From the UHGV virus genome UHGV-1333633: a stretch of 48,160 nucleotides of DNA; one strand, given 5' to 3'. The stretch comes from a virus. Position numbers and translations under genes: made by a program. Numbering within the stretch: position 1 is the stretch's first letter; each line of letters begins with the position of its first letter. Shown in pieces: positions 422 to 47,977 of the stretch. Under the pieces are notes generated by a model. It worked only from the letters and a program-made list of their open reading frames with translations, made no database searches and was not told the origin of the DNA.

Positions 422-590
422 CTAACGAGTCGGTTTTTTGTTCATCCTCAATTTGAGGACGGACGATCACACCGTTGTCCGCCAGAGTTTCGATGGTGCG
501 CTTCACGTTGTCATGACGCTTCTCAACCAGCGTCGCAATCTCGAGGCTAGACATAGTTAGTTCTAATTTCATGTTTATTAGATCGTTCAT
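396..590 (-). CDS. Rha-family (phage regulatory protein Rha, N-terminal domain) fragment of paralog 3, truncated by a frameshift
   Basis: MNDLINMKLELTMSSLEIATLVEKRHDNV... matches the N-termini of the other two copies (MSSREIAELTGKEH...). Stop at 396..398. The same leader sequence and RBS as the other copies lie upstream. Confidence 0.5.
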   Translation of the reverse strand: MNDLINMKLELTMSSLEIATLVEKRHDNVKRTIETLADNGVIVRPQIEDEQKTDSLGRLRSGKR

Positions 591-603
591 CTCTGTTCTC
601 CAT

Positions 604-688
604 TTGTTTGTGTGAGTGTAGTTTCGATGAAAATCACGACCCATTCAAATCGATTTGTTTATGGTCACGATTAACGATAGAATTAATG
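604..688. repeat. Conserved ~80-bp leader repeat found upstream of each Rha-like gene. Copies at 604..688, 46185..46260 and 46608..46682. An internally deleted copy is at 47688..47720.
   Basis: Near-identical sequence gtgtgagtgtagtttcgatgaaaatcacgacccgttcaaatcgatttgtttatggtcacgattaacgat at all four sites. Confidence 0.8.
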
Positions 689-711
689 GTATCTAACTGA
701 GGGGGAATAAA

Positions 712-1086
712 ATGTCACTTGTTAAATCTTTCACAGTGGGCGACACAACATACAACGCCGCAATGCCGTCCGCAATTGAGCAGGACGAAATCTTGTCATT
801 GGTTGGCGCACAATTCATCGTGCACGCCGGGAACGTCTATAAGAACGGTGGCACATTGTCGGTCAAGGATGTTGTCCTAATGCTCACCACGCTACCGCAC
901 GTTGTCAAAAAGCGCATTTCAGAAGTATTACTGAGTAAAACTTTCGTCGCCGGTCAGGAACGTAAGGTCGATGTTGCTGATTTTGCCGGACGCATGATGA
1001 GTTTCAACACCCTGTTGGCTGAATTGTTTCTGTGGGTTTACGCCGATTTTTTCGATTACGTGCAAAACGCAAACAAAGACGAGTAA
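712..1086 (+). CDS. tail assembly chaperone (lambda G-like), frame-0 product
   Basis: Lies immediately upstream of the tape measure gene. Its 3' end overlaps a -1 frame ORF (1032..1295) across a slippery heptamer. Confidence 0.55.
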   Translation: MSLVKSFTVGDTTYNAAMPSAIEQDEILSLVGAQFIVHAGNVYKNGGTLSVKDVVLMLTTLPHVVKKRISEVLLSKTFVAGQERKVDVADFAGRMMSFNTLLAELFLWVYADFFDYVQNANKDE

Positions 1087-2917: not shown

Positions 2918-4342
2918 ATGGATTTGCGCCAGTATGAAATACTCATTGACACAAAGAATTTCATTACACAGTCGTACCCTATGCTCCGGTGCTCGTTCGA
3001 TGTGACAACATATACCGGCGACAGCCTGAGCACCTGTGAGCTTCGCTTGTGGAACCTTGCACCGACAACGAAGATTGAACCAAATCAGACCATTGTCTTT
3101 CGCGCGGGGTATCAGTCGCGCATTGGTCAGATTTTTACTGGGTTTGTCACCAACGTTTTCACCATTCGTGACGGTACCGACATTATCACCCGTGTGACGT
3201 GTCGCAGTGGTAGCAACGTGCTCGACGGCGGGACAACGAGTGCGAGTTTCGGTAAGGGGGTGACATTGTTTGACGTCTTGACCAGTCTCGCACAGGACTG
3301 GTCGAAGCCGTTATATCTTGTCAATAGTGAGGACAAATTTACCTCTATTGTCATGGCTGGCGGCTACAACGTCAGCTCTGATATCAGTAAGGAGATTGAC
3401 ATTCTGGCTAAAGCGTATGGCTTCGAATGGCACCTGTACGCTGGGCAGGTGTTTGTCGGATTTCCATCTGATGACCGTAAAGCCACCCCCATCAAAATCA
3501 GTTCTGCGACCGGGATGATTGATGCGCCAACGCTTCACGGCGGCATTGATGGTGTATTCTGTGACGTTAAGATGCGTCTTGACCCCCGTATGACACCCGC
3601 ATCGGTGCTCAATATCGAATCGAAATGGCCTAAATTCGATTTCGGAGCTGTGGAGTTCCAGACAACCGTCGACGCTAAACTGGAAGGTGACTGGAACGTT
3701 CAGACCATTCAGCATACCGGAGACACACATGGTCCCGACTGGTACACATTTGTCAAAGCTGTGCGTGCCGGGTCAATGGATACCACCACGACAAACAGTG
3801 ATGTCGGTAATCGTCTTATTTACGGGCGTGTTAGTGTGCAGGGTGAGGATGCCAGTCAGCAGCAGGATTTCCGTACCGAGGTGCGTAAACTTGGACAAAG
3901 CCTGAGCATCAGTCCTAACTGGATTATGGCTGTAATCTCTGCGGAGTCTAACTTCAATCCACAGTCAAAGAACAGCAAATCCGGCGCGGTAGGACTAATT
4001 CAGTTTACCGACACCGGATGGACAAGTGCGTTTCAGAGTAAGTACGGTCGGAATAAAAATATCATCCTGTCAATGACCGCGGCCGAACAGGTGAAAGGCC
4101 CGGTGACCGACTATCTCAACCAGTACAAAGGGCGTTACAAAACGATGGGCGATGTGTACATGGCTGTATTCAGTCCAGCATTCATCGGCAAACCTTCCTC
4201 GACCGTGATGTACTCATCACCGTCCAAAGCGTATAATCAGAACGCAGGGCTTGACACGGACCATAAAGGTTACATTACTGTCGGCGACGTGTGGCGACGT
4301 GTTGAGGAACGATTCAGACAAGGTAAGGCGTACATGTTATGA
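2918..4342 (+). CDS. tail/baseplate hub protein with C-terminal lytic transglycosylase (SLT) domain
   Basis: The C-terminus carries ISPNWIMAVISAESNFNPQSKNSKSGAVGLIQFTDTGW, a goose-type/SLT lysozyme motif with a catalytic Glu in the ES pair. The N-terminal half is of the tail hub (gpD/gp44-like) size class. Confidence 0.6.
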   Translation: MDLRQYEILIDTKNFITQSYPMLRCSFDVTTYTGDSLSTCELRLWNLAPTTKIEPNQTIVFRAGYQSRIGQIFTGFVTNVFTIRDGTDIITRVTCRSGSNVLDGGTTSASFGKGVTLFDVLTSLAQDWSKPLYLVNSEDKFTSIVMAGGYNVSSDISKEIDILAKAYGFEWHLYAGQVFVGFPSDDRKATPIKISSATGMIDAPTLHGGIDGVFCDVKMRLDPRMTPASVLNIESKWPKFDFGAVEFQTTVDAKLEGDWNVQTIQHTGDTHGPDWYTFVKAVRAGSMDTTTTNSDVGNRLIYGRVSVQGEDASQQQDFRTEVRKLGQSLSISPNWIMAVISAESNFNPQSKNSKSGAVGLIQFTDTGWTSAFQSKYGRNKNIILSMTAAEQVKGPVTDYLNQYKGRYKTMGDVYMAVFSPAFIGKPSSTVMYSSPSKAYNQNAGLDTDHKGYITVGDVWRRVEERFRQGKAYML

Positions 4343-4989
4343 GTTTAATTAACCTTCTGGTAAAGCGCGGCCCACAGCTTGGGTCGCTTCAGTTCGATGC
4401 TGTCCTGTCTGATGACCTTGATGCCAGCGTGGACATTGTGCAGTACCCCATTGAGACGGGTACGCCAATTGCAGACCACATCATCTATCAGCCTATTCGT
4501 TACACGATGACGGGCGCAGTATCGAACAACCCACTGAAAGTTAGTATCACTGATTTCACCGGGGCGTTGACAAATCTCGTCGATGACAATCCGTTCATTG
4601 CTGCAGGTGCTGGTCTGTTCGCGGGGTGGTTGAGCGGCTCAAATGAAACTCGCTCCAGTACGACACTGAACACTTTGCTTGATTTCATGTACTCCGGCCA
4701 GGTATTCACGGTGGATACGGGTGAAATAACGCTGAACAATATGGTCATTCAGCGTATCGGGCGCTCTAAAGACCCGGAGAATGAGAACGGACTGATATTT
4801 GTTGCTGAACTGCAGCAGATTGTCACGCTTGACCGCGTGGCGAACGGTTCACAACCGGCACAGTATCAGCTGAGCAGTAACGACGTTTCCAGCACATCCA
4901 TATCCGGACTGATTGAGCATGGTTACATCAATGTGAAGACAGCCGCAACGAATGTTGCCAGCCAGGTTACGACACTTTTAGATTTGTAA
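4339..4989 (+). CDS. hypothetical tail/baseplate protein
   Basis: 216-aa ORF translationally coupled (ATGA) to the upstream hub gene. Confidence 0.4.
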   Translation: MSLINLLVKRGPQLGSLQFDAVLSDDLDASVDIVQYPIETGTPIADHIIYQPIRYTMTGAVSNNPLKVSITDFTGALTNLVDDNPFIAAGAGLFAGWLSGSNETRSSTTLNTLLDFMYSGQVFTVDTGEITLNNMVIQRIGRSKDPENENGLIFVAELQQIVTLDRVANGSQPAQYQLSSNDVSSTSISGLIEHGYINVKTAATNVASQVTTLLDL

Positions 4990-5011
4990 AAAAAGCCCCG
5001 GGGACCGGGGC
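4988..5011 (-). terminator. intrinsic terminator oriented for the minus strand (hairpin gccccggggaccggggc followed on the minus strand by U7)
   Basis: Perfect 7-bp GC stem at 4995..5011 with an A7 run at 4988..4994 on the plus strand (U7 on minus). On the plus side it is followed by caaacatg, which is not U-rich. Confidence 0.5.
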
Positions 5012-5224
5012 AAACATGCAGGAGCACAACAGAGAGAGAGCACGGTTTACAGGTTAAACGTCATCTAAACTCTAAACCGTTATATTGGTCGAACCGCCGC
5101 GGTGACCAACCGCTCAGTGTACACTTGGCTACACATTCCGGCTACCCGCTGATGCAAGGAAAGGAACACCCCGGACCTCTAAAGACACATGTGCTATATG
5201 CCTGTGAATGAATAATTGCATTGT

Positions 5225-5240
5225 TTGACGTGAGTGTCAA
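5225..5240 (-). promoter_or_regulatory. imperfect family palindrome TTGACGTGAGTGTCAA. Candidate minus promoter TTGACA-17-AATTAT directing transcription into the 5040..5200 non-coding gap.
   Basis: Read on the reverse complement. Confidence 0.35.
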
Positions 5241-5275
5241 TAGTATACTTGACATTATTTTCACAGGAGGGCGAC

Positions 5276-5950
5276 ATGACCGACATTAACCAGCGCCGCT
5301 CGTTTTTACAGAACGTCACTAATGACACGTTTTTCGAGAACATGAAGGATGTGTATACGTGTATTCCGGGTTACGTGCTGACATTCGACCCGGATACACA
5401 GCGCGCGCAGATTCAACTGGGAATCACCCGGACCGATGATGTCGCTAAAACTACGTTCGACCCGCCACCCATCGTGGACGTTCCCGTAAGTTTCCCGGGC
5501 GATGACTTCGTACTGGAATTTGCCGTCAATCCGGGTTGCGAAGGGATGGTACATTTCAGTCAACGTTGCATCGATGGATGGAAGCAGACCGGCGGCATTG
5601 CTGCTAATCCCGTTAAACGCTTTCACCACAAACAGGACGCAATGTTCGTACCGGGAATTCGTTCGCTTGATAACCTGATTGCAAGTTTTTCCAACGATGG
5701 GATACGCTTGCGCAATGCCGACGCGTCACAGCACGTCTGGTTAAAGGGTGATGGTTCGTGCATAATGGCTAATGGGAACGGCAACGTTCAACTTCTTGCG
5801 AACGGCACGGTGAGTATCAATGGTGTGACCATTGATAAAGACGGGAATATCACCGCTCTGAATTCTCTGGTGCTGGACGGTAAAGAACTCAATGGTCATA
5901 CTCATGGCGGCGTTGCTTCCGGTGGTTCTAATACGGGGCCGAATAACTGA
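5276..5950 (+). CDS. baseplate central spike protein (P2 gpV / Mu gp45-like), probable start at MTDINQ
   Basis: RBS ggaggg lies 6 nt upstream of the ATG at 5276. The C-terminus is a G/N-rich beta-helix-like stretch with an HxH apex motif (NGHTHGGVASGG). The gene is followed by gpW- and gpJ-like genes. Confidence 0.45.
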   Translation: MTDINQRRSFLQNVTNDTFFENMKDVYTCIPGYVLTFDPDTQRAQIQLGITRTDDVAKTTFDPPPIVDVPVSFPGDDFVLEFAVNPGCEGMVHFSQRCIDGWKQTGGIAANPVKRFHHKQDAMFVPGIRSLDNLIASFSNDGIRLRNADASQHVWLKGDGSCIMANGNGNVQLLANGTVSINGVTIDKDGNITALNSLVLDGKELNGHTHGGVASGGSNTGPNN

Positions 5951-6297
5951 TGACAGTACGTAAATTAGATAAAGATGGTGACATCGTTACCCAGGGTTCG
6001 ATGTTCATCACTGAACAACTGGAAATAGAGCAGACGATACGTACCCGTCTGCGTTTGTTTCTGGGTGAGTATTTCCGGGATGTGACTGACGGTACACCAT
6101 GGTTTCAGGAGATACTCAATAAACAAACTTCCATGGATGTCCGCGAAGCACGCCTCCGTGAACGCATCTCCGGTACTCCGGGTGTCCAGCAGTTAACCAG
6201 TTTTAGCACCGATTTCGACATCGACAACAAAACTTACATGGTCACCGCCAGCGTGTTGACCTCCTACGGATTATTAACGGTGACCGAGAATGGCTGA
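5950..6297 (+). CDS. baseplate wedge protein (gpW / T4 gp25-like)
   Basis: 115 aa, ATGA-coupled to the spike gene. The TEQLEIEQTIRTRLRLFLGEYF motif is typical of the GPW_gp25 family. Confidence 0.55.
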   Translation: MTVRKLDKDGDIVTQGSMFITEQLEIEQTIRTRLRLFLGEYFRDVTDGTPWFQEILNKQTSMDVREARLRERISGTPGVQQLTSFSTDFDIDNKTYMVTASVLTSYGLLTVTENG

Positions 6298-7498
6298 ATT
6301 AACCAGTACCGGCTATAGCGTAAAATCACAGAATGACTGGTTTGACGAAGAAAAACAGTTATATCTGGATATCGACAGTAACTGGAATCTTGACCCGTCC
6401 ACCCCCGATGGGTTGAAGATGGCGCACGATGCTGAAATCTTCTCCGCGCTCGATGAGGTATTGCAACAGGCGTACAACTCCAAAGACCCGAACAAAGCCA
6501 GCGGTTATGACCTCGATGTAATTTGCGCGCTGACAGGTACCGTCAGGAGTGAAGGTACTGCGTCCACTGTTACAGGGTTTGTGTTAACGGGTGTTGCCGG
6601 TACTCAGGTTCCTGCGGGTACACGCTTTGAATCATCTGTGACGGGTTATCGATTCACGCTCGACCAGACGTGGACGCTGGATAGTTCAGGTACCGCAACG
6701 GTGGATATCACCTGTACCACGGTTGGTGAAATCGAAGCGGACGCCAACACTATCACAACAATCGTGGACACAGTTGCCGGACTGGTGTCAGTTAACAACC
6801 CCACTCCAGCAACACCCGGTACATCTGCTGAATCGGATGGGTCGTTACGCCTTAAACGAGCGACGGCCGTAGGTCTGCCGGGTAGCAACCAGGTTGATTC
6901 AATGCTGGGACAACTGTTCAATGTGGATGGTGTACGCCGTGTTCGCGTCTATGAGAACGACGAAGCCACAACCGACAGCAACGGTCAACCGGGTCACAGT
7001 ATTGCACCCATCGTCGATGGTGGCACGGACGATGATGTAGCGATGGCTATCTACCTTAAAAAGAATCCGGGCGTCGCACTTTATCAGGCTGGAACCAGTG
7101 TGACAGTCACGGTCACGTCGCCTACTTATCCAACGATGACCAAAGATATCAAATTCAGTCGCCCCGTGTATGTGGACATGGTGATAGTCATTGAGATTAA
7201 AGATGATGGTACGTTACCGTCTCAGGCAACTCTCGAGCCACTCATTCAGGACGCAATAATGGAATACGCCGCGGGTGGTCTAATTCCGACAGAGTACGGG
7301 TTTAAGCCGGACGGGTTTGATATCGGTGAAACAGTCCCGTACAGTTCACTTTACACGCCTATTAACAAAGTCATTGGTTCATACGGTAACAGTTACGTTA
7401 ATAGTATGACGTTGAATGGCAGCACGGCGAATGTTACCATTGACTTTAACGAATTATCCCGCTGGACAACCTCAAACATCACGGTGACTATCGTATGA
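6290..7498 (+). CDS. baseplate J-like protein (gpJ / Mu gp47-like)
   Basis: 402 aa. Overlaps the gpW-like gene at its 5' end and follows it directly, the canonical W-J order. Confidence 0.55.
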   Translation: MAELTSTGYSVKSQNDWFDEEKQLYLDIDSNWNLDPSTPDGLKMAHDAEIFSALDEVLQQAYNSKDPNKASGYDLDVICALTGTVRSEGTASTVTGFVLTGVAGTQVPAGTRFESSVTGYRFTLDQTWTLDSSGTATVDITCTTVGEIEADANTITTIVDTVAGLVSVNNPTPATPGTSAESDGSLRLKRATAVGLPGSNQVDSMLGQLFNVDGVRRVRVYENDEATTDSNGQPGHSIAPIVDGGTDDDVAMAIYLKKNPGVALYQAGTSVTVTVTSPTYPTMTKDIKFSRPVYVDMVIVIEIKDDGTLPSQATLEPLIQDAIMEYAAGGLIPTEYGFKPDGFDIGETVPYSSLYTPINKVIGSYGNSYVNSMTLNGSTANVTIDFNELSRWTTSNITVTIV

Positions 7499-9660
7499 CC
7501 ATTATCAAACGCGCAGACCTGGGTCGACCCTTAACGTGGGACGAACTGGATGATAACTTCCAGCAGGTTGATAATTTGACAGCTGCCGCATCAGCGGCTG
7601 TATCAAGTGCTGCTGCTTCAGCTGTGGCCGCTGCAGGCAGTGCTACGAATTCCCTCAACAGTGCAAATAGTGCTGCTAGTTCGGCGGATGACGCCGCAGC
7701 ATCAGCAGCATCGGCAATCGATGCGTTAATGAATTCGGCATTCGAACCGAGTGGTTTCGACTTCACCACCGGTGGCACACTTGATACCACTGACCGCAAT
7801 AAAGCCGTGTACAACCCGGCGGACAATAACTGGTATTCGTGGTCTGGTACACTACCGAAGGTTGTCGCGGCTGGGACTGACCCGACGGCGGACAGTAAGT
7901 GGATACCGCGCACAGACCAGTTACTGCGACAGGAGTTGTCATCACCCTCTGGTGCATCTAAGGTGGGTTTATCTCATGGTGGCACCGTACAGGATGCAAT
8001 TTACTGGCTAACGGTTGAAATGTTCGGCGCTAAAGGTGATGGAGTAACAGATGATTACCCGGCGTTTCAACGTGCCGCTATGTACGCGGAATCTATCGGT
8101 GGCGCGATTATTGAAATCCCAACGCCTGCGGTTGAATACAAAATTGGTTTTCCCGTTTATCTGTTCAATAACACGCACTTTAAAGGTACTGGCATTAACT
8201 GCCGTATCAACTTTACTGACCCGCTATATGCCAGGAAGTCACGCAGCGGTTTTGTCATTGGCAGTGGCCGAGAGCAAAACAGAGATAAGGCAATTCAATG
8301 CCTGAACGATGGCACATGGTCCACCACAGGTTCAGTAGTTGATTCCACGTTTGTTGAACTTGACCGCGGGGTTTACCTGCGAGATAACCTTGACAAAGTT
8401 CAATCATCTAACTGCTGTGTCAGTGATGTCTACCTGGTGGCCTCTTACCCTAACGGAACAACGTTAAAGGGCGGGTATGGCGTATCCTTTGCGAACGCTA
8501 TTGATTGCGAGGCGTATAACATTTGGGGTGAGGGTTGGACGGAAATAATCAATATTGGTTCTGACGTTCCGCCAGCAACGCCAAGTTGTCATAACTGCCA
8601 CGCTTATAACATTGTAAGCATTGAGCCGAACAATTACGAAACCTACTATAGTATTGGTTTTATTGCTAACTCAACGTCGTGCTCTATACACGACTGTTTC
8701 CAGCTAAAGCCGATTGCAGATGATTCTCCGCATGGTTCTGGCGCATCGATGAACTACACGGAAGATTGCTCATTCTATAACCTCAATATTCCTAGTCTTG
8801 GGCGTACAGCGACCTCGGAAGGCGTTCTGGTTAACAACTCTAAAGGCGCACGGATATTTGACATTAGCATCGGCAACGCCAAATCCGGTGTTGCTGAGTA
8901 TTACACTACTGAAGCGGGCATATTCTACGATGCTGCGAAGCCGAACATTTTTTACGATATTCACGCAAACAACTGCGATCACGCGGTTGCCCTACGTTCT
9001 AAATACAGCGTATGGGAAAACGTTACGCAGTCTAACTGCACGGTCCACGTTTACTTTGGGACCAGCAATGCGCAATATTGCAAGGTAAAATTCAGGCCTG
9101 ATAGTATCGCTTATGGTGGCTCGACAACGCCGGCGACCTACCTAAAGAACAACAAGGTAGAAGGGAGACGCCTCAAGCGAATCTATTTCCAACCGCTGCA
9201 ATATCTCGTGTCCGACTACGCAAGCGTGAGGGCTGGTGATTCCCCTATCAGTAAGGCGGTTTATACTGTCGTTGATAAACCACTTACGTTTATTTTCCCT
9301 ATCCCAGACGATGCGTACGCAATAGATGATTTCCGTATGTTTTTCAGATGGGGAGATGGCGCGCAAACCAAGGGTTCTAGCGTTGTAGTTTCGCTTATAG
9401 CAATGCGAACGTTCGATGGAAACTCTTCTTTATCGCCAGTAACCCTGCTCTCAACCACGCGGACACCGACCTCAGATACAGCATCTGAAGTAGCCCTGGT
9501 GTTGCAGGCTGCTGCTACAACTCCCGGGTACATCCCAATTTATGGACCAGAAGTAACCGGCTACCTGCCTCGTGCAGCCCAGCTGGTGATTCAGGTCTTA
9601 AACCCTGTAGACAACATAATCCTAAAGGAATGTTCTCTGCAGTATTATGGTAACATTTAG
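7495..9660 (+). CDS. tailspike / tail fiber protein with pectate-lyase-like right-handed beta-helix (probable depolymerase) domain
   Basis: N-terminal anchor with an Ala/Ser-rich coiled segment. Central FGAKGDGVTDDYPAFQRAA...IEIP motif is characteristic of Pectate_lyase_3/GH28-like beta-helix domains. Many N/G/S-rich beta-strand repeats. Confidence 0.6.
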   Translation: MTIIKRADLGRPLTWDELDDNFQQVDNLTAAASAAVSSAAASAVAAAGSATNSLNSANSAASSADDAAASAASAIDALMNSAFEPSGFDFTTGGTLDTTDRNKAVYNPADNNWYSWSGTLPKVVAAGTDPTADSKWIPRTDQLLRQELSSPSGASKVGLSHGGTVQDAIYWLTVEMFGAKGDGVTDDYPAFQRAAMYAESIGGAIIEIPTPAVEYKIGFPVYLFNNTHFKGTGINCRINFTDPLYARKSRSGFVIGSGREQNRDKAIQCLNDGTWSTTGSVVDSTFVELDRGVYLRDNLDKVQSSNCCVSDVYLVASYPNGTTLKGGYGVSFANAIDCEAYNIWGEGWTEIINIGSDVPPATPSCHNCHAYNIVSIEPNNYETYYSIGFIANSTSCSIHDCFQLKPIADDSPHGSGASMNYTEDCSFYNLNIPSLGRTATSEGVLVNNSKGARIFDISIGNAKSGVAEYYTTEAGIFYDAAKPNIFYDIHANNCDHAVALRSKYSVWENVTQSNCTVHVYFGTSNAQYCKVKFRPDSIAYGGSTTPATYLKNNKVEGRRLKRIYFQPLQYLVSDYASVRAGDSPISKAVYTVVDKPLTFIFPIPDDAYAIDDFRMFFRWGDGAQTKGSSVVVSLIAMRTFDGNSSLSPVTLLSTTRTPTSDTASEVALVLQAAATTPGYIPIYGPEVTGYLPRAAQLVIQVLNPVDNIILKECSLQYYGNI

Positions 9661-19643: not shown

Positions 19644-19910
19644 ATGACGGGAGCGTCAATAACAACGGAGAACGGAGAGATGATTAACGATAACTACAGG
19701 GCGAGAGCAACCCGTGCAGAACAAGAATCGGCGAAATTGCGTGAAGAATTAGCAAAACGACCCAATTATGAGTGGTTTGTTGAACTGGTTCGCAAACATT
19801 TGAAACAAGAGGAAGGTGTTTGTCCTCAACGTTTGGCACATCAAGTTAAACAACTGAAAGAGGCGAGTACCAAACGTAGACAAAATCGGGAGTGTGCAGA
19901 AGATGAGTAA
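19644..19910 (+). CDS. hypothetical protein
   Basis: 88-aa ORF with RBS gggagggtgg. Confidence 0.4.
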   Translation: MTGASITTENGEMINDNYRARATRAEQESAKLREELAKRPNYEWFVELVRKHLKQEEGVCPQRLAHQVKQLKEASTKRRQNRECAEDE

Positions 19911-33806: not shown

Positions 33807-33955
33807 TTTCCATACGCCTCACGTAACACAGCGTTAGCAAGCGCCCAATCTTCATGTTTGCGTGCGAGCTGCTGTGCGGTCTGTAACAGTTCTTTATCGA
33901 CAACGAGTGCCTCTGATACGGGACGGTTGTAGCCGGGAAGTAGCGTGTTAATCAT
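33803..33955 (-). CDS. small ORF (50 aa) MINTLLPGYNRPVSEALVVDKELLQTAQQLARKHEDWALANAVLREAYGK
   Basis: Below the track cutoff. Preceded by RBS gaggg and the minus promoter at 34004..34019. Confidence 0.35.
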   Translation of the reverse strand: MINTLLPGYNRPVSEALVVDKELLQTAQQLARKHEDWALANAVLREAYGK

Positions 33956-34003
33956 CTCTCAAACCCTCTCTGTTGTTGTTGATGAACTGAGTATACGTCA
34001 TCC

Positions 34004-34052: not shown

Positions 34053-34256
34053 CTAAGCATGAGAAAGTCCATACAATGTCCCCACTCGTTTCAAATCGCG
34101 CTGTGCGTGACAGCTGTAATTACCATCGTCCCACTGTACATAGTAGCGTGGTGGCTCATCCATAATCACATTCATCACAGTGCCGGTGACGACACCATCG
34201 GGGAATAACTTCACAAGTGTCCCGGTTGGGTAGCGTGGGATGGTTGTGCTCATCAC
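34053..34256 (-). CDS. hypothetical protein (67 aa)
   Basis: ATGA overlap with its upstream gene. Confidence 0.4.
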   Translation of the reverse strand: MMSTTIPRYPTGTLVKLFPDGVVTGTVMNVIMDEPPRYYVQWDDGNYSCHAQRDLKRVGTLYGLSHA

Positions 34257-34438
34257 TCACCCTCGTACAGTGGTTTCAGTTGATACCCGAACATGACAGC
34301 GTTGTTATGCGCCACACTACCCGCGCGGACCAGATATGTCGTACCGCGGTTGGTTGTCACTTCGTATGCGTATGGTTTTAAAATGGTGTCGATTTTATCC
34401 AATTCAGTTTCACATTGGGCGATGAAATCGTTACTCAT
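34253..34438 (-). CDS. hypothetical protein (61 aa)
   Basis: Coupled to the DUF3310-like gene. Confidence 0.4.
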   Translation of the reverse strand: MSNDFIAQCETELDKIDTILKPYAYEVTTNRGTTYLVRAGSVAHNNAVMFGYQLKPLYEGE

Positions 34439-47749: not shown

Positions 47750-47932
47750 TCATTTTGTCAGCATCCTTTTGAGTTTCATTGCGCACAGGTAGAAGAAGTA
47801 GAGACCTGGTAGAGCCAGAATCATCGGCACAATCTCCCCATTTTTCTCGTGTTCCAGACCCACTGCAATCATGGATGCGGCCACAGCTGCGACAATTAAG
47901 AAACATACCACTGTCATGATTTTGTTTAACAT
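47750..47932 (-). CDS. small membrane protein (2 TM), paralogous leader to 46709 protein
   Basis: MLNKIMTVVCFLIVAAVAASMIAVG...PMILALPGLYFFYLCAM. Confidence 0.45.
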   Translation of the reverse strand: MLNKIMTVVCFLIVAAVAASMIAVGLEHEKNGEIVPMILALPGLYFFYLCAMKLKRMLTK

Positions 47933-47977
47933 TTTCGTGTCCTCTCTGTTGTTTTGTTGATGTAACTGTAACTCGCA

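Follow-up and report, generated by a model that had tools for sequence, protein, structure and literature searches.

The gap between two tail genes of this phage genome holds what we read, with moderate confidence, as an autonomous, moron-like non-coding RNA gene on the minus strand, whose product would be a stable early RNA acting in trans. The fold and the strand of its structured core are established by covariation. Judged from sequence comparison, this core defines a large RNA family of enterobacterial phages that is unannotated and appears to be undescribed. How it would act in trans, and on what target, is put forward here purely as conjecture.

The window, by which we mean the whole 48,160-nt stretch that was analysed (UHGV virus genome UHGV-1333633), is a Jedunavirus genome with 99.6% identity to Klebsiella phage KpV79. 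The plus-strand gene upstream of the gap (4339..4989) ends with the stop codon TAA at 4987..4989. The start codon of the downstream gene is almost certainly ATG 5276, preceded by the Shine-Dalgarno (SD) sequence aggagg at 5266..5271, rather than at GTG 5234, and the gap therefore ends at 5275 and is 286 nt long (4990..5275). The earlier note, made from the sequence alone, had set it at 4990..5233; its left edge stands and its right edge moves to 5275. The features of the gap are as follows.

4988..5011, minus strand: intrinsic terminator, read from the sequence; stem GCCCCGG/CCGGGGC (5011..5005 with 5001..4995) of seven G-C pairs, 3-nt loop, U7 at 4994..4988
5012..5041, minus strand: CU-rich 3' tail, GCUCUCUCUCUGUUGUGCUCCUGCAUGUUU, resembling an orphan 3' half of a cassette stem (UGCUCUC..GUUGUG)
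5042..5084, minus strand: "empty cassette" hairpin, stem of ACGGUUUA (5080..5073) and UAAACCGU (5049..5042) enclosing a further, small hairpin, from the sequence and from relatives
5085..5205, minus strand: conserved structured core RNA, from a covariance model and covariation; predicted 5' end ~5205
5087..5113, minus strand: H-type pseudoknot of the core, from mutual information; S1 5113..5110 with 5102..5099, S2 5107..5104 with 5090..5087
5117..5134, minus strand: variable hairpin P4 of the core, GUGUA (5134..5130) with UACAC (5121..5117), read from alignments, with weaker support than the other helices
5139..5178, minus strand: bent hairpin P2/P3 of the core, 5178..5167 with 5154..5139, GUA bulge, variable loop; compensatory changes in 5 of 7 P3 pairs
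5183..5203, minus strand: hairpin P1 of the core, 8 bp (5203..5196 with 5190..5183), loop AGCAC; compensatory changes in 5 of 8 pairs, 98% of cells paired
5212..5240, minus strand: predicted sigma70-type promoter of the RNA; -35 TTGACA at 5240..5235, 17-nt spacer, TG-extended -10 AATTAT at 5217..5212; 10/12 match and membership in a family
5221..5275, plus strand: control region of the baseplate operon, outside the RNA, from the KpV79 annotation and the sequence; overlaps the RNA promoter
5221..5249, plus strand: candidate baseplate promoter TTGTTT-17-TATACT, annotated in KpV79
5250..5258, plus strand: alternative candidate baseplate promoter TGaCATTAT, from the sequence

Signals of the minus-strand unit

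From these signals, host sigma70 RNA polymerase would start at ~5205 at a strong early-type promoter and end at the intrinsic terminator, giving a predicted transcript of ~218 nt (~5205..4988) with the core as its 5' ~120-135 nt. Both ends of the unit, that is, a TTGACA-17-AATTAT promoter overlapping a palindrome and a GC hairpin followed by U7, had been recognized beforehand and are confirmed here. The promoter is the best-scoring site within 3000..8000 (10/12), and one arm of the palindrome TTGACGTGAGTGTCAA (5225..5240) provides its -35. This palindrome, TTGACN6GTCAA, occurs at 14 sites in the genome against 2.4 expected, a number that none of 100 shuffles reaches. At 11 of the 14 sites, exactly one orientation yields TTGAC(G/A/C), a 17±1-nt spacer and a -10 with A2 and T6; at 5225..5240, the orientation that fits a promoter is minus only. 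By these sequence features, the RNA promoter is one member of a genome-wide family of about 12 putative palindrome-bearing promoters. It also appears to overlap face to face with the plus-strand baseplate promoter.

The terminator adjoins the stop codon of the upstream gene. Relatives retain a minus-oriented terminator, with an altered loop or stem or as another hairpin (CCCGCCCUCCGUGGCGGG followed by U8-13). On the plus strand, no U tract lies 3' of the 4990..5011 hairpin and no terminator is found there.

Generic promoter-like and terminator-like matches are not enriched in the 5-kb region (5 against 5.8 and 3 against 5.1 in shuffles, respectively), so motif matches alone prove little. The unit gains extra weight from the excess of the palindrome family, the minus-only fit of the promoter and the low variability of the gap compared with synonymous sites. 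Among 13 distinct near relatives, variable positions number 20/121 in the core, 3/35 in the promoter and 8/33 in the tail, against 106/299 at third-codon positions, which served as the reference; the gap is thus the slower-evolving of the two. The changes among these relatives cluster in loops and compensating stem positions, and 5241..5275 has no variable position. The discrete minus-strand RNA of ~200 nt that was first proposed is supported, as a prediction, by the promoter family, the retained terminator and the covarying family fold.

Fold of the core and the cassette stem

Covariance model R1, built from 22 sequences including that of the window, matches the window at 5205..5072 on the minus strand with 105.6 bits (E ~1e-28, model positions 1-147 of 147), and has no second match in it. 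The fold of the core comprises four helices and an H-type pseudoknot. In family alignment A3, canonical pairs fill 98.5% of cells, against 30-41% with slid partners, and compensatory changes occur in 17 of 27 pairs, values reached by none of 500 shuffles, although the family alignments were fitted to the model and the pair counts are biased in its favour. Alignments A2 and A3 both covary. The pseudoknot, which came from mutual information and is absent from the model, has compensatory changes in three of four S1 pairs and three of four S2 pairs, with about 99% of cells paired. A simple hairpin, P5, had been considered for the 3' part of the core; its inner pair fails in 48 of 81 sequences, and the covarying pseudoknot was preferred. 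For part of the fold covariation is uninformative, because P2 (almost) and most junction nucleotides are invariant.

The fold is specific to one strand by virtue of conserved G·U pairs, among them U8·G18, which nearly all members have; its sense strand is the minus strand of the window. The check that had been suggested, covariation across related phages, is therefore favourable: the helices covary, and the G·U pairs fit the minus strand only.

The window forms P1, P3 and S1/S2 and departs from the family at a few places. The P1 loop is AGCAC in the window and GGCAC in most members, while P4 changes from GUGC(A)/(U)GCAC in most members to GUGUA/UACAC. Hairpin P2/P3 is flanked by invariant UAGCGG and GGUAGCCGGAAUGUG; the window carries GGUAGCCGGAAUGUG and has UAGAGG in place of UAGCGG, which turns the first P2 pair into an A·G mismatch. 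It also carries the conserved GGCG that lies in the pseudoknot loop.

Beyond the core follows the cassette stem. The internal stem acggttta/taaaccgt of the earlier note is present, pairing 5042..5049 with 5073..5080; its end had been placed at 5079, off by one base. This stem is possibly lengthened by UAUAAC (5084..5079) with GUUGUG (5030..5025). In relatives, the equivalent stem surrounds a tRNA-like insert. Its CGG/CCG in the window corresponds to UGG/CCA in others (e.g. L026, L153), a compensatory change for which L015 is an intermediate with one mismatch. The motif of the CU-rich tail is found as the 3' arm of cassettes in other phages.

Distribution of the family and comparison with known RNAs

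The 20-mer CAGCGGGTAGCCGRAATGTG is present in at least 119 IMG/VR contigs, model R1 matches 100 of 100 sources searched (93-157 bits), the core being found by covariance model in more than 100 phage and prophage contigs besides the window, and blastn finds matches in 2010 of 5426 complete E. coli genomes, roughly a third of which have the fold in prophages. Members occur in jedunaviruses, in P1, P7 and D6, in lambdoid, Rac-like and CPS-53-like prophages, and in temperate podovirus-like phages. The unit is therefore not the "orphan" it was first taken for; the RNA of the window is the minimal copy of a modular unit common to P1, lambdoid prophages and others. In other phages the core sits in early operons, for instance in lambdoid PL leaders, often beside tRNA genes and variable hairpin cassettes. 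P1 carries it in the ban operon, which is under C1 control and also includes a dicF-like region and three tRNAs; the core stands there between trnI and ban and is absent from the 535 annotated features of the P1 record.

What lies downstream of the core varies: ban in P1, Tad2 in a D6-like plasmid, early-left genes in lambdoids, a gp49-like gene adjoining a portal gene in one phage (L043), and no sense-oriented gene in the window. Stand-alone cores followed by oppositely oriented genes are seen in L049- and L062-type prophages. Across 105 distinct contexts, a sigma70-like promoter is found within 200 nt upstream of the core in 60 and an intrinsic terminator within 1 kb downstream in 59. A same-strand tRNA lies within 400 nt downstream at 17 of 120 loci (Arg-UCU at 16, CAU at one).

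Among close relatives whose flanking genes are 98-100% identical, the gap ranges from 285 to 638 nt, and the longer gaps hold extra cassettes and tRNA-like inserts; that of L032 contains a true tRNA (CAU). Within the genus, the minimal form is met most often, with 61 GenBank records at 80% or more coverage of a gap-spanning query and 90-99.6% identity. Two relatives (L020, L028) keep cassettes and lack the core, and in a third (L017) the core is truncated. The core is thus dispensable for at least some phages, and the modules are separable.

None of the 4227 covariance models of Rfam 15 matches the whole window at the gathering threshold. Relaxed searches of 4900..5350 return terminator-driven matches only (14-21 bits against thresholds of 39-70), and Rfam has no match on the core in 12 relatives, P1 or the E. 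coli prophage loci. No tRNA or tmRNA was found in the window with ARAGORN or Rfam RF00005; relaxed ARAGORN, whose calls in relatives are mostly noise, is also empty in the window gap. Suggested resemblances to 4.5S/SRP RNA, 6S RNA, RNase P RNA (J11/12), Y RNA/YrlA and the T-box were unsupported by the Rfam models at E≤10. Literature searches on Jedunavirus, put and antiterminator RNAs, tRNA-like phage RNAs, the P1 ban operon and core strings returned no description of the RNA and no observed transcript, whether for this phage or for another member of the family.

Two known systems resemble the unit in setting. Like phage morons, the window unit is autonomous, with a promoter and a terminator of its own, stands among the genes of another module, here two tail genes to which it is oppositely oriented, and varies in presence or content among near-identical phages. 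Morons carry a protein payload, whereas this unit carries an RNA, a payload that is embedded in operons in other phages. T4 species 1 and 2 RNAs are structured non-tRNA molecules of ~120-140 nt from early units, transcribed together with phage tRNA genes. By description, they are similar to the core in size and tRNA-cluster setting. The core family, on the other hand, belongs to another phage group, is modular and often occurs without any tRNA, and we know of no sequence relationship between the two.

Possible roles of the RNA

In the other phages, the core is one module of early non-coding arrays, repressor-controlled or sigma70-driven, whose further modules are rare-codon tRNAs, variable hairpin cassettes and sRNA-like elements. 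The window has this array in stripped-down form, with core, empty cassette stem, CU-rich tail and terminator. In the reading we favour, a stable core made early in infection would act in trans through invariant unpaired UAGCGG, GGUAGCCGGAAUGUG and loop GGCG, probably by binding a conserved host component, whether protein or RNA, and it would not regulate the neighbouring tail genes. Jedunaviruses conserve the strong minus terminator directly 3' of the RNA, which argues for the RNA itself as the product. The analysis turned up neither a binding partner of the core nor a protein gene that co-occurs with it, nor any host sequence complementary to it. An early trans-acting structured RNA is better supported than a cis-acting antiterminator, base-pairing by way of the tail or a coding function.

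Among the alternatives, one that is unlikely, though worth weighing, takes the core for a processive antiterminator or anti-Rho element acting in cis (HK022 put-, HK639 putL- or EAR-like), which would ride its own polymerase through the array and its terminators. In most temperate-phage contexts, the core has an early promoter on one side and, on the other, intrinsic terminators with genes after them, a layout that also fits such an element. Lambdoid, Rac-like and CPS-53-like prophages have it just 3' of the cI-side early promoter, which is the nutL/putL position; no N-like ORF is found at this place, and the first early-left genes have intrinsic terminators ahead of them. L043 has two terminators whose distance to the SD of the following gene is at most 10 nt, too short for a promoter to fit in between. 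The put RNAs are structured, 70-130 nt long and located just 3' of an early promoter (PL) where no N gene is present; they precede terminators and need no dedicated phage protein (PMC9378689; HK639 annotation). HK022 putL/putR and the HK639 putL-like RNA share with the core the character of structured phage RNAs. For the core, a place between an early promoter and terminators ahead of the early genes is seen in lambdoid and Rac-like prophages and L043, not in the window and not clearly in P1.

The likeness does not extend to the molecules. HK022 put consists of two stem-loops with a triplex, whereas the core has four helices and a pseudoknot, with no match in sequence or structure; model R1 finds nothing at E≤10 in the complete HK022 or HK639 genomes, the annotated HK639 putL-like RNA included, and put is therefore an analogy only. 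EAR (eps-associated RNA) of Bacillales is an RNA of ~120 nt with a pseudoknot that lies inside an operon and promotes processive antitermination. The size and pseudoknot of the core resemble it by description, but the host clade differs, and the Rfam model for EAR has no match in the window at E≤10. Unlike put, the core is also found with nothing downstream to antiterminate, as in the window and the stand-alone L049- and L062-type copies. The window and all minimal jedunaviruses have the strong conserved terminator directly after it, beyond which transcription would produce tail-gene antisense only, the strong dicF-like terminator of P1 lies ~2.2 kb upstream of the core, and arrays without a core exist. 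A boxA/nut reading of GCUCUUUAACAA, found 3' of the core in some prophages, was discarded as evidence for Nus-dependent antitermination, since this sequence falls on the 3' end and terminator of opposite-strand inserted genes.

It is improbable that the functional part is instead the 3' end, acting as an Hfq-type base-pairing sRNA whose CU-rich seed (5041..5012) would occlude GAGAGG-type ribosome-binding sites of phage early or host mRNAs. The 3' layout in the window, ...CUCUCUCUGUUGUGCUCCUGCAUGUUU, hairpin and U7, is typical of Hfq-dependent sRNAs (U-rich stretch, seed, U tail of at least 6). In addition, two early operons on the minus strand have in their leaders, at 33966..33976 and 47942..47952, an exact complement to part of the tail, ACAACAGAGAG, the count of this 11-mer being marginal (3 against 0.78 expected, reached by 5 of 100 shuffles). 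Against 85 predicted phage start regions, however, complementarity is no better than that of shuffled seeds: five sites have runs of at least 11 bp, with a shuffle mean of 4.0 (P=0.35), and the longest run is 12 (P=0.78). Pairing of the tail with phage early leaders in trans, as an anti-SD element (ACAACAGAGAGG in two leaders), was rejected as not above composition-matched chance. Moreover, the tail is more variable than the core and has the look of a 3' arm left over from a cassette stem.

The company of the core also bears on this sRNA reading. A terminator-adjacent module of lambdoid arrays resembles RprA (49.7 bits, under the gathering score of 70), and a dicF-like region stands in the P1 array. 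DicF (Qin), the dicF-like region of P1 and the RprA-like modules share with the core a niche of repressor-controlled early operons, processed non-coding modules and intrinsic terminators. DicF and RprA are short sRNAs that base-pair through a defined seed, whereas the core is larger and pseudoknotted, with invariant junctions, and has no detectable target complementarity or Rfam match.

We also doubt strongly that the gap is the decaying remnant of a tRNA or non-coding array that lost its tRNA-like cassettes, with a core still transcribed that no longer matters. The longer gaps of near-identical relatives, with their cassettes, tRNA-like inserts and the true tRNA, point in this direction, as do the core-less and core-truncated variants. 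On the other hand, no other form is as common in the genus as the minimal one, fewer changes are seen in core, promoter and hairpin than at synonymous sites, most of them in loops and compensating stem positions, and stand-alone cores recur in unrelated prophages.

Local action, with an incidental fold, is very improbable. The RNA would in this case be cis-antisense to read-through plus-strand tail transcripts, or its promoter would time late genes by occlusion. The minus promoter (5240..5212) does overlap the candidate plus promoters, the palindrome being common to both, late transcripts should cross the gap in the absence of a plus terminator at 4990..5011, and 5241..5275 is invariant. The fold, however, is conserved in P1, lambdoid and other prophages with no convergent operon or common palindrome, which indicates selection on the RNA fold rather than on a local antisense relationship. 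The RNA, which the earlier note saw as transcribed against the direction of the surrounding operon, is likewise no local antisense regulator: the P1 and lambdoid contexts have no tail operon to be antisense to. Promoter interference may occur as a side effect.

That the gap encodes a small protein is scarcely credible: two GenBank records annotate plus-strand ORFs in it (64 aa in RCIP0030, 28 aa in FZ14), and the window, contrary to the former count of no ORF above 18 codons, has minus ORFs of 29 aa (GTG, 5169..5080) and 21 aa and a 28-aa plus ORF (TTG) once GTG and TTG starts are allowed, but neither the annotated ORFs nor the other small ORFs of the gap are conserved, the 64-aa frame is shortened to 13 codons in the window, no gap ORF has an ATG with an SD sequence, and substitutions track base-pairing without codon periodicity.

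A bolder version of the early trans-acting RNA is possible, and we offer it only tentatively. The core would be an unrecognised class of regulatory RNA, pseudoknotted and protein-independent, made at the very start of infection or induction and reprogramming a conserved host machine; RNA polymerase, a ribonuclease, the translation/tRNA apparatus or a widespread defence sensor would be candidates. It would form part of exchangeable "RNA arsenals" that P1, lambdoid phages and virulent Klebsiella phages would carry in their early operons, the other components being rare-codon tRNAs, mimics of host sRNAs and ACAAC...GUUGU hairpin cassettes whose inserts are T-loop-like.

Few conserved structured families are known among phage small RNAs, and this one reaches both the textbook phage P1 and the Klebsiella jedunaviruses that are candidates for therapy. 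The neighbouring cassettes differ among otherwise identical phages, as expected of host-range or counter-defence loci. For annotation, the small ORFs called over the RNA in RCIP0030, FZ14 and mEp390 (gp36), which we judge spurious, could be corrected. The minimal copy in the window, with promoter, core and terminator in ~218 nt, offers a clean test system for the role of the RNA. Should the RNA prove functional, one of the very common early products of phages would have been overlooked.

Promoter, terminator and the gap between tail genes

Between 4300 and 6000 the window shares 99.6% identity with Klebsiella phage vB_KpnM_KpV79 (Jedunavirus), and this stretch, used as a query, returned 71 matching phage records, 61 of them covering at least 80% of it. 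The baseplate gene begins at ATG 5276, which displaces GTG 5234 as its start, and the non-coding gap is therefore 4990..5275, or 286 nt. The minus-strand promoter and terminator claimed in an earlier note were both returned by a pattern scan:

4339..4989: tail gene, left flank of the gap
5276: ATG of the baseplate gene, behind an AGGAGG Shine-Dalgarno sequence, right flank of the gap
5240..5212, minus strand: promoter TTGACA-17-AATTAT (10/12), with a TG-extended -10
5011..4988, minus strand: terminator GCCCCGGTCCCCGGGGC followed by T7

In the surrounding 5 kb such pattern matches are not enriched relative to shuffles, and on their own they are therefore weak evidence. The promoter gains weight from membership of a palindrome-promoter family. 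There are 14 copies of the palindrome TTGACN6GTCAA in the window against 2.4 expected, and 0/100 shuffles reach the observed number. Eleven of these sites have one orientation, and only one, in which TTGAC(G/A/C) is separated by 17±1 nt from a -10 that has A2 and T6, with a leader and a gene downstream. About 12 sigma70-type promoters in the window have as their -35 (TTGACG) one arm of a perfect or near-perfect TTGACG-N4-CGTCAA, the -10 sitting 7-8 nt past the palindrome; at 19644 the palindrome is present and the -10 is absent in both orientations. At 5225..5240 the promoter architecture fits the minus strand only, the closest -10-like hexamer on the plus strand being 13 nt off. Recognition by sigma70 does not require palindromic symmetry, which suggests that the palindrome may be an operator for a phage regulator, e.g., an early shut-off factor.

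16-nt palindrome sites: 5225, 17538, 19588, 22078, 22796, 25543, 32766, 34004, 34719, 40306 and 47978

The leaders of minus-strand early operons (47932..47975 and 33955..34000) share an (AAC)n-AGAGAGG sequence immediately 5' of the start codon; this combination of AAN repeat and GA-type Shine-Dalgarno sequence may serve to enhance translation or as a distal-face motif for Hfq.

The authors of the KpV79 annotation placed a plus-strand promoter over the same palindrome. The 35 nt 5' of the baseplate gene (5241..5275, plus strand) are invariant across 13 distinct relatives, more conserved than every coding stretch nearby, and distant relatives retain TGTCAA-N12-(C/T)ATTAT upstream of this gene. 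This suggests a plus-strand promoter, possibly activator-dependent, in which the palindrome replaces the -35 region and which would overlap that of the RNA face to face.

Fold and distribution of the RNA family

A covariance model of the RNA (R1), built from 22 diverse sequences, found matches in 100/100 sources searched (93-157 bits); the unit, called an orphan in the earlier note, belongs to a widespread family of which the window carries a minimal copy. The sole match in the window is 5205..5072 on the minus strand (105.6 bits). Canonical pairs fill 96.4% of pair cells in the R1 alignment, against 28-44% with partners slid, and compensatory changes occur at 12 pairs, all pair counts coming from alignments fitted to the model itself. 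In A3, an alignment of greater diversity with P1-type and Rac-type members, mutual information favours an H-type pseudoknot in the 3' part over the simple hairpin first drawn. With the pseudoknot, 98.5% of cells are paired, 17/27 pairs show compensatory changes, and covariation scores 0.374, as against 0.148 for shuffles and 0.056 or less with partners slid; 0/500 shuffles match the observed pairing and covariation values, although such counts are not probabilities, since the sequences are related. The sense strand is the minus strand of the window, because conserved G·U pairs become A·C mismatches on the other. The family alignment places the helices as follows:

5203..5183, minus strand: helix P1
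5178..5139, minus strand: helices P2/P3
5134..5117, minus strand: helix P4
5113..5110 with 5102..5099, minus strand: pseudoknot stem S1
5107..5104 with 5090..5087, minus strand: pseudoknot stem S2

P2 and the junctions (UAGCGG, GGUAGCCGGAAUGUG, loop GGCG) are near-invariant, which suggests a binding surface; for the same reason covariation support does not extend to them.

At least 119 IMG/VR contigs contain an exact copy of the core 20-mer CAGCGGGTAGCCGRAATGTG (5151..5132, minus strand); most are non-jedunavirus, prophage-like contigs of ~40-45 kb from isolate genomes. Exact 20-mer matches in a one-genome-per-species collection fall in Klebsiella, Enterobacter, Kosakonia and two metagenome-assembled genomes of unrelated phyla, one of Muribaculaceae (L166) and one of Bacillota (L170, a 1.75-kb contig with a 155-bit match), both probably mis-binned phage contigs. 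When the core of the lambdoid phage mEp390 was compared with 5426 complete E. coli genomes by blastn at the 'distant' sensitivity setting, 2010 had matches, 494 of them with at least 80% query coverage, and 264 matching places were on plasmids; two partial matches checked with the covariance model were full-length members. At none of the 40 matches listed across the ranking was a feature annotated.

In mEp390 (L160, 3513..3657) the core lies ~50 nt 3' of a PL-like promoter, directly after a cI-like repressor gene and its terminator, and is followed by cassettes (variable hairpin modules), terminator-like hairpins and the early-left genes. The same position is occupied in Rac-like and CPS-53-like prophages of E. 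coli and in a Klebsiella/Enterobacter-type prophage (L048), which has a strong intrinsic terminator ~200 nt downstream. In P1, P7, D6, SJ46 and RCS47 the core lies inside the C1-repressor-controlled ban operon, 14 nt past the CCA of trnI (tRNA-Ile2, CAU) and ahead of ban; in P1 this operon further includes two additional tRNAs, a dicF-like region and a cassette of the typical ACAACAGGUAAG...CUUUCCUGUUG form. The P1 core is full-length (L174, 2523..2690; AF234172, ~71,022..71,189), and none of the 535 features of the P1 record annotates it. In L043, a temperate phage whose portal gene is of the T7 type, the unit is divergent from that gene, in the order promoter, cassette, core, cassette, tRNA-Arg(UCU), two terminators and gp49-like gene. 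A same-strand tRNA follows within 400 nt at 17/120 IMG/VR loci (Arg-UCU 16, CAU 1). A sigma70-like promoter precedes the core by no more than 200 nt (median 48 nt) in 60 of 105 distinct contexts, and in 59 of the 105 an intrinsic terminator follows it within 1 kb. One prophage contig (L044) carries two core copies in tandem orientation, ~800 nt apart:

L044 4815..4959 and 4008..4154, both minus strand: cores

Rfam 15 gave no match to the core in the window, 12 relatives, P1 or E. coli prophage loci. R1 found none in HK022 or in HK639, the latter with an annotated putL-like antiterminator RNA (34187..34312). Core sequence strings occur in no paper of the literature searched, and no description of the core was found in that on Jedunavirus, antiterminator RNAs, tRNA-like phage RNAs and the P1 ban operon. 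This family, apparently undescribed, is new within a class already known, which comprises RNA morons and the small or structured RNAs that phages encode.

Variable arrays and selection in jedunaviruses

Relatives were gathered from IMG/VR with a baseplate protein query (37 loci). Their flanking genes are 98-100% identical, yet gap lengths run from 285 to 638 nt; along with the palindrome promoter, every version retains a minus-oriented terminator, the hairpin sequence of which differs in some. Longer arrays contain, on the minus strand:

Element 1: conserved ~130-nt core adjoining the promoter
Element 2: hairpin cassettes with long arms ACAAC..GAGAGCA / UGCUCUC..GUUGU and variable inserts (L004, L013, L014, L018-L026, gap upstream of 2501; also L174 565..645 in P1 and L160 3870..4130)
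Element 3: module with a perfect Shine-Dalgarno-like GGAGGUGAU
Element 4: tRNA-like inserts inside the stem GGUUUA/UAAACC

Cassette arms covary, and the highly variable inserts (20-70 nt) include several T-loop-like GGUUCGAUUCC motifs; cassettes are gained and lost among phages with otherwise identical flanks, and are found too in P1 and lambdoid early operons. The tRNA-like modules, seen on the minus strand in the gaps of L013, L030, L018 and L004 and also 3' of the core in L086, have an acceptor-type stem GUGGUG/CACCAC and T-arm-like and D-arm-like hairpins, but an insert of 60-100 nt replaces the anticodon arm; they were called as tRNA by neither ARAGORN nor Rfam. A distant relative (L032) has a true tRNA, anticodon CAU, in its array. 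The conserved, non-coding Shine-Dalgarno module begins GAGGUGGUCC in L004, L014, L022 and others, and CAGGAGGUGAUUC in L013, L030 and L032; after its near-perfect anti-16S sequence come no more than a mini-ORF of 6 codons and a conserved GGGUAAGCCG hairpin, and the module could be a ribosome-binding decoy or micro-ORF.

The window has the minimal layout, the common form in the genus: core, GGUUUA/UAAACC stem around a small hairpin only, CU-rich tail resembling an orphan 3' cassette arm, and terminator. The internal stem described earlier is present (5042..5049 with 5073..5080). In the gap upstream of 2501, two loci (L020, L028) have promoter, cassettes and terminator and lack the core, and in L017 the core ends before the pseudoknot; array modules therefore assort independently. 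In L030 a further palindrome-type promoter (TTGACGAGCGCGTCAA), just past the array terminator, drives an ORF that lies between the tail genes and has Cys-rich (CxxC) units in repeated form. This inter-module gap is a hotspot for insertions on the opposite strand.

L030 ~590..1000 of the reverse-complemented stretch, minus strand: extra promoter and ORF

Among 13 distinct minimal-type sequences, variable positions number 20/121 in the core (concentrated in the P3 loop and P4 hairpin), 3/40 in the hairpin, 3/35 in the promoter and 0/35 in 5241..5275, versus 106/299 at third-codon and 12/598 at first and second codon sites of the flanking genes. The gap, with its low variability relative to third-codon positions, is therefore under purifying selection.

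Function of the core

The gap holds a conserved, strand-specific RNA fold flanked by an early-type phage promoter and a terminator; together with purifying selection, this bears out in essence the earlier reading of a discrete minus-strand small RNA, and we hold its existence, strand and family membership with high confidence. A stable trans-acting RNA module is the simplest single function that fits all contexts. Host sigma70 polymerase would transcribe the unit early into an RNA of ~218 nt, and the invariant unpaired nucleotides of the core would address a conserved host component. The trans mechanism itself is tentative, and for the whole explanation, from RNA unit through early expression to trans action, we see about even chances. 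The dicF-like and RprA-like modules that share the arrays offer a parallel. The latter, a terminator-adjoining module of lambdoid arrays with UUGCUGUGUGUAGUCUUGGC, is similar to the host sRNA RprA (Rfam RF00034; 49.7 bits, short of the gathering score of 70) and may be a prophage-encoded mimic.

L048 7558..7677 and L160 ~3975..4045, also L041, L057 and L086: UUGCUGUGUGUAGUCUUGGC module and terminator

That put-like cis-antitermination is the common function of the core is unlikely, although temperate phages show the expected order of early promoter, core, terminators and genes, with no N-like ORF. In jedunaviruses the core directly precedes a strong conserved terminator beyond which lies only tail-gene antisense, other prophages have stand-alone cores followed by oppositely oriented genes, the single strong terminator of the P1 operon lies ~2.2 kb upstream of the core, and cassette arrays without a core exist. 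As a side effect, the unit may act on the baseplate operon by local antisense or promoter occlusion, but this would leave the conservation of the fold in other phages unexplained. A gene-specific riboswitch-type role is excluded, since downstream genes differ completely among contexts. A composition-matched test did not support pairing of the CU-rich tail with ribosome-binding sites of the GAGAGG type in early mRNAs of the phage.

A small protein is very unlikely: the absence of ORFs above 18 codons had been slightly overstated, given minus-strand GTG ORFs of 29 and 21 codons, but these lack a Shine-Dalgarno sequence and are not conserved, nor are the different small plus-strand ORFs that two other records annotate in the gap conserved in the window. 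Hypothetical-protein ORFs annotated across core or array in public records, including that of mEp390 in GenBank, are likely spurious:

L160 3585..3827: mEp390 gp36
L003 1718..1912: RCIP0030_00034
L002 2331..2417: FZ14 gp15

The interest of the family lies in its breadth, which takes in P1, a third of E. coli genomes and therapeutic Klebsiella phages, and in the quality of the covariation evidence. The element in the window is a minimal copy, with clean boundaries, of an enterobacterial phage RNA that is very common and has good structural support, and it offers a simple system in which to find the function of this RNA.
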